6,141 nucleotides of DNA from Candidatus Baldrarchaeum yapensis (GTDB taxonomy: Archaea; Asgardarchaeota; Baldrarchaeia; Baldrarchaeales; Baldrarchaeaceae): NCBI GenBank assembly GCA_016840465.1, contig JAEOSH010000077.1:1-6141 (forward strand). Direction: 5' to 3'. The notes below the pieces were generated by a model, which did not search any database, was not told where the DNA came from, and worked only from the letters and a program-made list of their open reading frames with translations. Positions 4,806-6,141 of the stretch are shown in pieces. Each line of letters opens with the position of its first letter. The stretch's first letter is position 1. The position numbers and the translations under genes were made by a program.

Positions 4806-4818
4806 TTTTATTATTTTC
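4806..4818 (-). promoter_or_regulatory. Putative BRE/TATA of the dehydrogenase-kinase-aldolase operon
   Basis: On the - strand, GAAAA-TAATAAAA about 33-45 nt upstream of the TTG at 4773. Confidence 0.4.
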
Positions 4819-4834
4819 ATGTCACTCGGACGTT

Positions 4835-5018
4835 CCGTTCTGACTCTCCGCCACTTTTGTTGCAATTGACGCGTGTGTGGCGGAGAGCCTTCCCGTCTCG
4901 GGGTCCATCGACGGGCTTTCGCGGGGAGCGGTACTCCGCGCGTCCATCTGCCCCTCGCTCCGCCCTTTCGGGCTTCCCTTCCTCTCACCGTCCCTCCCAC
5001 ATCCCGGGCGGAGCCCGC
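4835..5018 (-). ncRNA. Putative structured RNA of E1 (omega-RNA-like scaffold)
   Basis: AAAA-CC-CTTATAAA with the TATA box at 5044->5037, about 25 nt before the GC-rich start GCGGGCTCCG. Helix CGGGCT/AGCCCG. 13-bp terminal stem (4889->4877 with 4854->4842) whose one non-Watson-Crick pair is a G.U only on the - strand. Confidence 0.55.
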
Positions 5019-5102
5019 TTAACACAACAGAAGTCCTTTATAAGGGTTTTGAGGTTGTAAAGGTGCGTGAAGGCAGCAAATGCAACACTATACGTTTCCT
5101 CC
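4835..5102 (-). mobile_element. Element E1: 264-bp non-autonomous, GG-bounded, IS607-like mini-element
   Basis: Left end 5098->5059 is 37/40 identical to E2 5709-5748. Terminal 30 nt (4864->4835) are 28/30 identical to E2 5929-5958. Homology to E2 stops at the right-end GG, and GGGG precedes the left end in both. No credible ORF. The family assignment is inference. Confidence 0.75.
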
Positions 5103-5259
5103 CCGAGTTTCTCGAGGCGGAAGGAAAGTTATTAAATTATGGGTAACATCCTTTCCCTGAAAAGTAATACATGATAGGCGGTCATGTGACCATTTGCCGA
5201 GAAACAAATCGCAAGGACACAACTCACATCGATGCGTAGGGGGCGTTAAGGTGGGCGTG

Positions 5260-5706
5260 ATGAAGTGGTGGCGGTGCAGAAATCCATTTTTTAGAAAGGT
5301 AACGTATGCGGAACGGTCAGGCACGATGTACGTTTACAGTTTTGGTTGCAACTGGGCGTGCCTAGTGTGTACTTAATAGGATAAAGGATCCATGTGAGGA
5401 GGACGGTTGCAGGAGGATTGAGGAACGAAGGATGGAGTACTATCGGAGTGGACTGATAAAAACTGTGAGGTTTCTTGGCGGGGAGCCCCTAATAAATCCC
5501 CAGTTGCCGGCCATAGCAAAGTTTGCGGCCGATTTGGGGGGTAAGGGTGGAAATTGGGCATACAAACCTTTCCGTGATGCCTCCCGATGTCGCCGAAAGT
5601 GCTGTTGTTAGCATAAAGGCCATTGATGAGGCATACATAGGAAGTATACTGGAAACTTTTCCAATAGGAATGTGCTCAGGAACTTTGAGAAGTACCACCA
5701 GAGGGG
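5260..5706 (+). pseudogene. Radical SAM protein (PFL-activase-like), N-terminal fragment, frameshifted and interrupted by E2
   Basis: CxxxCxxC (GCNWACLVC, Cys codons at 5347, 5359 and 5368). Shift near 5371, then VRFLGGEPL (5477-5488 = GGEP). +1 G in the G6 run at 5536-5541, then VEIGHTN...SIKAIDE. Shift near 5632, then IHRKYTG...NVLRNFEKYHQRG. Start codon uncertain. Confidence 0.88.
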
Positions 5707-5958
5707 CAGAAACGTATAGTGTTGCATTTGTTGCCCTCATGCACCTTTGATGCACCGTAAAGCAATGAGGTGTGCTGATGCCGTAACTTTATATTTGTTT
5801 TCTCCACAAAGAAGATTTGGTGGGCTCCGATTTCCGAGAGCCCGCGGGCGATGAAGGTCCGGTGACGTACCGGAGAACCCGCGGTGAGGGGGTCGGAGCG
5901 TCGCCGCGATGAAGGTCTCCGCCACGAATGCAACAAAAGTGGCGGAGAACCAGAACGG
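5705..5958 (+). mobile_element. Element E2: 250-bp non-autonomous, GG-bounded, IS607-like mini-element inserted in the radical SAM gene
   Basis: GG at 5705-5706 and 5957-5958. Removing 5707-5958 gives CAG AGG GGT ATG CGG (QRGMR), in frame. Both ends are homologous to E1. Confidence 0.8.
5819..5958 (+). ncRNA. Putative structured RNA of E2 (omega-RNA-like scaffold)
   Basis: TTTATAT at 5788-5794, about 27 nt before GGTGGGCTCCG. Hairpins GGGCTC/GAGCCC, TCCGGT/ACCGGA and TCTCCGCCAC/GTGGCGGAGA (5916-5925 with 5939-5948), followed by ACCAGAACGG. Confidence 0.55.
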
Positions 5959-5978
5959 TATGCGGCTTAAGACAAACA

Positions 5979-6141
5979 CCGTTCTGGTTCCCAGGCTCGT
6001 GGTTGCCCGTGCGTTATCTTTTGGAAACTAAGGGTATTTTGGGAACCCGCACGGGCTTCCCCCTCGGCCGCTTCATCCCTCTCGGCGGCCCATCGGGGGC
6101 CACATCGACGAGCACCACGGAGCCCGCCTCACGTGCGTCCG
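5979..6141 (-). mobile_element. Element E3, right-end part, tail-to-tail with E2
   Basis: 5979-5990 is the exact reverse complement of E2 5947-5958 (GAACCAGAACGG). Terminal stem GGTTCCCA/TGGGAACC (6047->6040 with 5993->5986). Four co-linear sequence blocks are shared with E1. Confidence 0.65.
6127..6141 (+). repeat. Direct terminal repeat, right copy
   Basis: Identical to nucleotides 1-15. Confidence 0.97.

Follow-up and report, generated by a model that had tools for sequence, protein, structure and literature searches.

The question raised by this locus is what two short elements, without open reading frames (ORFs) but with conserved ends, a TATA box and a strongly folded right part, carry and how they are maintained in the genome of an Asgard archaeon. 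The window analyzed here, 6,141 nt in length, is the entire contig JAEOSH010000077.1 of Candidatus Baldrarchaeum yapensis (contig C82 of assembly GCA_016840465.1, termed here G000). Two mini-elements, E1 and E2, are located in its right part, and a third one, E3, is split between its ends. Our results suggest that E1 and E2 are protein-less derivatives of IS607-family transposons, which probably act as guide-RNA cassettes for a TnpB nuclease supplied in trans. The assembly (2.27 Mb in 100 contigs, 46% G+C) is 96% complete and contains an archaeal small-subunit rRNA.

Boundaries and organization of E1 and E2

Element ends were located by repeat finding in the window and further copies by genome-wide sequence search, and the boundaries were established from an alignment of 13 copies. 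The two left ends (5059-5104 and 5703-5748) are inverted 46-nt copies of each other with 89% identity, and the two right ends (4835-4873 and 5920-5958) are inverted 39-nt copies with 85% identity; thus E1, on the minus strand, and E2, on the plus strand, share both ends and are placed left end to left end. Their features are as follows (R1 denotes a covariance model of the RNA core, described below):

4835-5104, minus: E1, an IS607-derived mini-element without ORFs, 270 bp long with the flanking G's counted; defined by 12 copies and by homology to segments of the IS607 element in contig C96 of the same genome
4837-5100, minus: E1 body, with the GG core at 4835-4836 and 5101-5102 and the extra GG of the GGGG that resembles a target-adjacent motif (TAM) at 5103-5104
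5059-5104, minus: E1 left end of about 46 nt, with 74% identity to the full-length left end C96:26174-26219
5035-5046, minus: E1 palindromic TATA module CCCTTATAAAGG, which precedes the first RNA helix by about 25 nt; TATA element at 5037-5043
4957-5014, minus: E1 helix P0, a 9-bp stem GCTCCGCCC / GGGCGGAGC around a loop, recognized by homology to C96 and by covariation
4835-4952, minus: E1 omega-RNA core, comprising P1, P2 (with a 12-nt GAUGxACCCCGA loop) and P3 (the terminal 13-bp stem), followed by UCAGAACGG; 140 bits with R1
4815-4834, minus: putative E1 guide, the 20 nt of flank in a read-through transcript, placed according to the TnpB/IS607 model (bioRxiv 10.1101/2023.11.20.567912)
5703-5958, plus: E2, a variant mini-element whose inserted DNA measures 252 bp and can be placed at 5707-5958 or, just as well, at 5705-5956
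5703-5748 and 5920-5958, plus: E2 left end and right end, as in the E1 family, around a different interior
5788-5794, plus: E2 TATA-like candidate TTTATAT, about 25-30 nt upstream of a long GC-rich hairpin starting near 5818, as read from the sequence alone
5812-5958, plus: E2 folded RNA part, supported by its folding z-score and by a match to R1
5959-5978, plus: putative E2 guide, corresponding to the host codons M-R-L-K-T-N of a pseudogene

The alignment shows that homology begins with CAGAAACG directly after GGGG and stops with CAGAAC directly before GG, beyond which the flanks are unrelated; GG is found at both junctions in all copies. The termini form direct repeats, CAGAAAC and CAGAAC, each beside the GG crossover dinucleotide, and are not inverted. 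Terminal inverted repeats (TIRs) are absent from E1 and E2, whose sole inverted match is a subterminal stretch of 15 nt (I16), and no target duplication longer than GG was found in the aligned copies. An earlier interpretation, made from the letters of this DNA without database searches (hereafter the sequence-only reading), had proposed for E1 and E2 exactly this layout of GGGG, conserved left end, TATA box, GC-rich fold, terminal stem, AGAAC and GG, lacking both TIRs and longer target duplications, and this is confirmed for both elements.

Both folded regions are more stable than expected, with z-scores of -2.35 for E1 and -4.52 for E2 (none of 200 shuffled sequences was as stable). The predicted fold of E2 includes a long and nearly perfect hairpin with an inner GAUGAAGG hairpin that resembles a K-turn, and with a further GAUGAAGG; its terminal stem (5914-5950) is followed by CAGAACGG. 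The base of the terminal stem shows compensatory differences between E1 (G-U, C-G) and E2 (G-C, U-A). The proposal that this base varies and stays paired in three elements therefore survives for E1 versus E2, and fails for E3, where the GGT/ACC pairing is spurious. No tnpA-related ORF, and hence no element-encoded transposase, was found in E1 or E2, which are therefore derivatives and not autonomous members of the IS607 family. The E2 interior is unique in the genome, occurring in a single copy.

A full-length IS607 relative and the origin of E1

A full-length element with ends related to those of the mini-elements is located in the same genome (C96:26176-28026); its left end is 74-80% and the last 115 nt of its right end 83% identical to theirs. 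It encodes a 204-aa IS607 serine transposase (C96:26236-26850; NCBIfam NF033518 transpos_IS607, 237 bits at a cut-off of 110; Pfam HTH_17 and Resolvase) and a 436-aa TnpB (NF040570 guided_TnpB, 162 bits at a cut-off of 100), and no Y1, DEDD or DDE enzyme. The TnpB protein possesses the RuvC motifs GVDVN, ALESL and ADRD and two CxxC pairs, and is apparently intact, as judged from these features; among solved proteins, the one nearest to it in sequence is L79 of mimivirus, a TnpB-like protein and giant-virus Fanzor2. The derivation from an IS607/TnpB transposon suggested by the sequence-only reading is thereby upheld. Another full-length IS607 element, with a serine recombinase carrying a helix-turn-helix domain, is present in a metagenome contig (L118), where an exact E1-type left-end 24-mer follows TGGG. 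G000 contains three further IS607-type loci, which have different ends.

When E1 is aligned globally with the C96 element, four parts can be told apart: a left end of 46 nt, a 46-nt stretch containing the palindromic TATA module, the P0 module, and the last 115 nt. The TATA stretch has no counterpart in C96. The P0 module corresponds to C96 27782-27824 (82-88% identity), where tnpB codes for the first zinc-finger CxxC, and the core corresponds to C96 27912-28026 (83% identity). What is gone from E1 is tnpA, most of tnpB, and 87 nt of coding-only DNA between P0 and the core; TnpB residues 337-402 remain recognizable by tblastn in every copy. The omega-RNA scaffold is thus taken from the 3' end of tnpB and finishes at the right transposon boundary. 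On the strength of this alignment, E1 is a C96-type element from which the genes have been deleted.

The reading frame of the C96 tnpB (C96:26822-28132, equivalent to L044:411-1721) has no stop within the element: it continues through the whole omega-RNA region and past the right end before terminating 106 nt inside the flank. In L106 and L107, the tnpB frames of E3-type elements likewise extend well into the omega-RNA region. Elsewhere in the genome (G000:C55:22690-23500), another IS607 tnpB is split by an ORF insert of about 800 bp with LAGLIDADG-like sequence; its omega-RNA-like 3' end reads CTGAACCC, not CAGAACGG.

Covariation of the RNA helices and the promoter-like module

In order to examine the conservation of the RNA, we aligned the last 118 nt of 20 elements, both orphan and full-length, from G000 and four other genomes (G002, G003, G008 and G131), and built R1 from the omega-RNA core. 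In helices P1-P3, 95.4% of the alignment cells hold standard pairs, compared to 40-52% when the partners are slid by 1-3 columns; compensatory changes were found in 9 core pairs, compared to 1-3 in the slid controls, and none of 500 shuffles reached the observed values. In P0, compared in 15 elements including full-length ones, stem positions 5-8 swap between CG, UA, GC and AU and stay paired; in the full-length elements this helix overlaps the zinc-finger codons. A covariance model and a covariation test, suggested with the sequence-only reading, thus speak for a conserved RNA. Since P0-P3 are all kept and the DNA between the modules is gone, the mini-elements retain all four conserved helices and have lost coding-only DNA, in agreement with the earlier view of them as non-autonomous derivatives that kept the ends and the scaffold.

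A mini-element from G003, a genome of the same order and of another family and genus, has the whole E1 layout at 67% overall identity, including the module AAAACC[C/T]TTATAAAGGA and a compensatorily changed P0. Conservation in this pair is highest in the TATA segment (0.78, compared to 0.57-0.66 in the neighboring segments) and lowest in the spacer that separates TATA from the first helix.

Copy number, distribution and target site

Besides E1 itself, the genome contains 11 further copies of its family, with 86-96% identity, which makes at least 12 in total. R1 detects 21 scaffold loci in G000, E2 among them, and only one of these (C96) is located beside tnpB, so that orphan scaffolds outnumber the cognate nuclease gene by about 20 to 1. 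A search of 150 genomes of the phylum returned R1 matches in 17, with orphan and full-length copies both present. Among 29 loci inspected, several follow a full tnpB and at least 10 have no tnpB upstream.

The GG dinucleotide precedes the left end in 21 of 21 elements, and the four nucleotides there are GGGG, TGGG or AGGG in 18 of them; the expectation of the sequence-only reading that other copies are bounded by GG is thus confirmed. GGGG precedes 11 of the 12 aligned E1-type copies (GAGG in the remaining one), E2, and two metagenome copies, and TGGG or AGGG precedes the full-length elements and the mini-elements of other genomes. This NGGG flank agrees with the TGGG published as target and TAM of an IS607 element, and its role as a TAM is putative here. 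When the genome was searched for second targets of 20 guides (at most 3 mismatches in 16 nt), only background matches were obtained, therefore homing directed to the element's own site fits the data better than defence or regulation.

Two contigs of JGI metagenome Ga0180301 carry E1-type mini-elements (L114:3034-3307 and L113:1323-1553) that are 94-98.5% identical to the C55 and C89 copies, and their flanks match nothing in G000; either they belong to portions of the genome missing from the assembly, or they were recently transferred to another organism. Two E1-type copies at G000:C39:1-25 and G000:C69:3440-3464 have the same 25-nt left flank and different right flanks, which may be due to another recombination event or to branching in the assembly graph.

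The insertion site of E2 in a host pseudogene

E2 interrupts a decayed host gene, of which the following part lies to its left:

5260-5706, plus: 5' part of a pseudogene resembling radical S-adenosylmethionine (SAM) proteins, which continues at 5959-5998 and again at 142-365

A 245-aa homolog from G002 aligns to 5260-5373, 5378-5707 (with frameshifts and stops), 5951-6001 and 142-365. Removal in silico of 5707-5958 (252 bp) and of E3 yields RNFEKYHQRGMRLKTNTVLVPRLVDVGEVER, which is colinear without gaps with ENFEKCYQKGITLKTNTVLVPKFVDVGEVEK of the homolog. When E2 is taken out, a single GG remains and the frame of the host gene is recovered exactly; E2 therefore inserted precisely at the final GG of AGAGGGG. 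After rejoining, the site would consist of GGGG with the E2 flank behind it, exactly as the published homing model requires. With respect to the empty alleles that the sequence-only reading had called for, the outcome is divided: deletion of E2 reconstructs a virtual empty site, and a real one was not found. In the relatives compared (none closer than the same order) the flanks had no match, and look-ups of the flanking proteins returned a recombinant arrangement, described below, and no empty site.

The gene has also decayed independently of the two insertions, with changes of frame near 5373-5378 and 5545-5640 and in-frame stops. A separate peculiarity of this junction is a perfect 12-bp inverted repeat (window 5947-5990), in which the E2 terminal GAACCAGAACGG is complementary to the host codons CCGTTCTGGTTC located 20 nt downstream. 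The 20 nt enclosed by it are exactly the putative E2 guide, the 12-mer of the E2 terminus is found nowhere else in the genome, and E2 differs from the family consensus at exactly the two bases that make the match perfect.

Proposed function and alternative explanations

We consider it likely that E1 and E2 act as guide-RNA cassettes for TnpB in trans. Archaeal transcription would start at the TATA module and read through the scaffold into the flank, producing an omega RNA with a guide of about 16-20 nt that corresponds to the DNA beside the right end. The TnpB of the full-length copy in C96 would load the RNAs of the mini-elements in trans. TnpA, also acting in trans, would excise a mini-element, upon which the rejoined site, composed of GGGG and the guide match, would be cut; repair from a sister copy that still holds the element would then retain it. 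According to this model, every insertion would carry its own site-specific guide.

Several findings weigh against this interpretation. The E1 left terminus is mutated (AGGAAAC in place of CAGAAAC), and E1 may itself be immobile for this reason. The fit of E2 to R1 is poor (36 bits, E about 1e-9 to 1e-11, 7e-12 in one search, compared to 140 bits for E1), and its structure lacks comparative support since it occurs in a single copy. There is only one intact cognate tnpB in the genome, its scaffold is 83% identical to that of E1, and compatibility of the C96 TnpB with the E1 scaffold is assumed; E2 has a divergent interior, which the same TnpB may or may not accept. RAGATH-18, the RNA associated with IS607 TnpB, has no match in the window in Rfam, if Rfam includes such a family: a scan of the whole window (E up to 1) returned only two chance microRNA matches (E 0.13-0.96), and a tRNA search of the window returned none. 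If the lack of an Rfam match is taken at face value, the E1/E2 scaffold belongs to a family different from RAGATH-18. Finally, the empty site of E2 is virtual only; a metagenome scan with the left-end 24-mer returned 7 contigs, which comprise the same loci, other organisms and one full-length IS607 element, and no pair of empty and occupied sites.

The alternative that survives best is that E1 and E2 are plain non-autonomous transposons, kept and spread only by virtue of their TnpA-recognized ends, in which the remnant of the tnpB 3' end is carried along as a passive relic, with no function for any RNA made from it. IS607-like boundaries and multiple copies are what such elements would have, deletion derivatives arise readily, and at 86-96% identity some of the E1 copies are young enough to display structure without selection. 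The terminal helix is ambiguous in this respect: 60 bp of the right end suffice for excision of the only IS607 element tested (bioRxiv 10.1101/2023.11.20.567912), and P3, contained in the terminal 50 bp, coincides in part with the stretch probably required by TnpA, so that its retention could reflect TnpA binding and not the RNA. P0-P2, however, lie outside the terminal 60 bp, at 60-175 nt from the end, and show compensatory pairing among orphan copies of different genomes in which no coding constraint acts. Moreover, the second internal deletion took exactly the 87 nt between two RNA modules, and in the comparison of E1 with the G003 mini-element the TATA module is better conserved than its neighbors (0.78 versus 0.57-0.66). 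For these reasons we regard the passive-relic explanation as unlikely.

Far less probable is that the mini-elements are domesticated, immobile small-RNA genes, i.e. sources of regulatory or antisense RNAs or outward promoters. An example would be E1, with its mutated left terminus and a putative promoter that faces the operon of a 2-hydroxyacid dehydrogenase: the gene is 62 nt away, and the putative guide is located 42-61 nt upstream of its start codon (4773). The presence of E3-type elements without a cognate tnpB in the assembly points in the same direction. The insertion sites, however, are unrelated to each other and one of them is in a pseudogene, the guides have no second match in the genome, and near-identical copies with unrelated flanks in the same metagenomes indicate recent movement.

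That the mini-elements are of the PATE (palindrome-associated transposable element) type, i.e. IS200/IS605 derivatives moved in single-stranded form by a Y1 (HUH) transposase, is suggested by the fact that these form a published protein-less class with omega RNAs (bioRxiv 10.1101/2023.03.14.532601) and is already contradicted, to the point of being hardly tenable, by the serine recombinase and not Y1 in the full-length relatives of both the E1/E2 and E3 families, by the duplicated-looking core dinucleotide (GG; AC for E3) that serine recombination predicts, and by the absence of subterminal hairpins at the left end.

Within the guide-cassette interpretation, we tentatively put forward a more specific possibility, about which we remain doubtful: the mini-elements may be not fresh deletions but an old, self-sustaining, guide-only hyperparasite lineage with its own TATA module and a trimmed omega RNA. 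It is also conceivable, with similar reservations, that such a lineage persists and moves across genomes of the phylum by borrowing TnpA and TnpB from rare autonomous IS607 elements.

E3 and the closure of the contig

The third mini-element is present in two halves:

5999-6141, minus: 3' half of E3, a member of a second mini-element family, with the right end GGGCAACCAC at 5999, set by the boundaries of its copies
1-144, minus: 5' half of E3, with the left end GACTATTCAC at 144, TATA near 88-94, and a 15-nt overlap with the other contig end

Its boundaries are set by at least 8 genomic copies (G000:C96:28615-28887 and at least 7 others), which are TATA-bearing elements of about 270 bp. The sequence-only reading had assigned to E3 the same layout from TATA to AGAAC and GG as in E1 and E2, and this part of it has to be abandoned: the motif in question, GGGAACCAGAACGG at 5978-5991 (minus), is outside E3, which ends at 5999, and represents host codons T-V-L-V-P of the radical-SAM-like pseudogene. 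We also rejected the possibility that GGGAACCAGAACGG terminates, on the right, a fourth element interrupted by E3, because it is host coding sequence conserved in the homolog, and the copy boundaries exclude E3 from the E1/E2 family.

Relatives of the E3 scaffold were found at tnpB 3' ends in G300, G302 and G307, all finishing with CACGGGCAACCAC, and in two of these loci a serine-recombinase gene is located upstream. A relative in G010 also finishes with CACGGGCAACCAC, without tnpB upstream. Judging from these comparisons, E3 is a second IS607-derived mini-element family, from another IS607/TnpB lineage; its core is probably AC, because AC is present at both junctions. A cognate tnpB or tnpA of E3 was not found in the G000 assembly, where the best TnpB match is only 28-30% identical.

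The pseudogene halves at opposite contig ends are joined through a single copy of E3, with a 15-nt overlap (1-15 and 6127-6141); therefore the contig closes on itself through E3. It may be a circle of 6126 bp, a collapsed tandem duplication, or an unresolved repeat path. In L120:2637-2970 (ENA ERZ27227320 k141_526719) and L123 (GCA_054386075.1), a hybrid element connects the dehydrogenase operon next to E1 with the sequence that flanks the C28 copy (G000:C28:4599-4869) on its left. All informative sites in the left part of this hybrid are of the C28 type and all those in the right part of the E1 type, and the crossover falls in a 66-nt identical middle, which indicates recombination between mini-element copies; recombination of a C82 circle with the C28 copy would be expected to yield this product. 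If the mini-elements do form a persistent hyperparasite lineage, their repeats, acting as chromosomal recombination sites, could explain both the hybrid element and the self-closing contig.

Significance and comparison with known systems

Provided that the RNAs are produced and put to use, about 20 independently mobile guide cassettes would serve a single nuclease gene. If this is true, an arrangement of a single effector and many separate guides would have arisen through transposon decay, not in the form of a CRISPR array, which bears on how guide and nuclease became separable in the evolution of RNA-guided systems. For an archaeal TnpB of the IS607 type, the mini-elements also offer a naturally shortened scaffold (about 175 nt, compared to about 240 nt) together with NGGG as a defined target. 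In addition, they matter for assembly and annotation, since contigs break at them, genes are split by them and rearrangements proceed through them.

Guide-only cassettes and protein-less PATE-like elements have already been published, so the idea itself is not new. Stand-alone omega RNAs without effector or transposase have been reported to work in trans, according to a secondary account (Altae-Tran et al. 2021, via PMC10691335). [quoted passage not shown] In Geobacillus stearothermophilus, IS605-family PATE-like elements possess conserved ends, no genes, and often omega RNAs that need TnpB in trans (Meers et al., bioRxiv 10.1101/2023.03.14.532601). These depend on a Y1 transposase and single-stranded hairpin ends, whereas E1 and E2 have GG-core ends and serine-recombinase relatives. 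Miniature inverted-repeat transposable elements (MITEs) resemble E1 and E2 in being short, multi-copy, ORF-less derivatives of insertion sequences, but E1 and E2 lack the TIRs and target-site duplications of MITEs.

Among RNAs linked to intact tnpB genes, RAGATH-18-derived right-end element RNAs (reRNAs) lie downstream of, or overlap, IS607 tnpB (PMC11061315); the E1/E2 RNA resembles them as a putative guide RNA from the 3' end of an IS607 tnpB and, on the Rfam result given above, belongs to a different scaffold family. The sense-overlapping transcripts (sotRNAs) of archaea are found at the 3' end of IS1341-type tnpB (PMC4615843) and overlap an intact gene, whereas in E1 and E2 the gene is gone and a separate putative promoter stands in front. 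A parallel at the level of ends is the IS607-family CboIStron, which combines a strict GG core with a TGGG target identical to its TAM and with an omega RNA ending in ...UCGG (Zedaveinyte et al., bioRxiv 10.1101/2023.11.20.567912). The same study describes a mini-IS, in which 40 bp of the left and 60 bp of the right end are enough for excision, and a model of TnpB homing (bioRxiv 10.1101/2023.11.20.567912). E1 and E2 share with CboIStron the GG core, a G-rich target, a scaffold ending in ...CGG, and a flank that serves as the putative guide. The CboIStron mini-IS, however, was engineered in the laboratory; in nature these elements carry tnpB together with a group I intron, are bacterial, and have no archaeal promoter module. 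Our literature searches returned no natural IS607-derived mini-elements and no Asgard cases (subscription journals were outside their scope). Compared to the published systems, E1 and E2 thus differ in their serine-recombinase parentage, archaeal host, dedicated TATA module and trimmed scaffold, and in a mini-element architecture that persists across genera.

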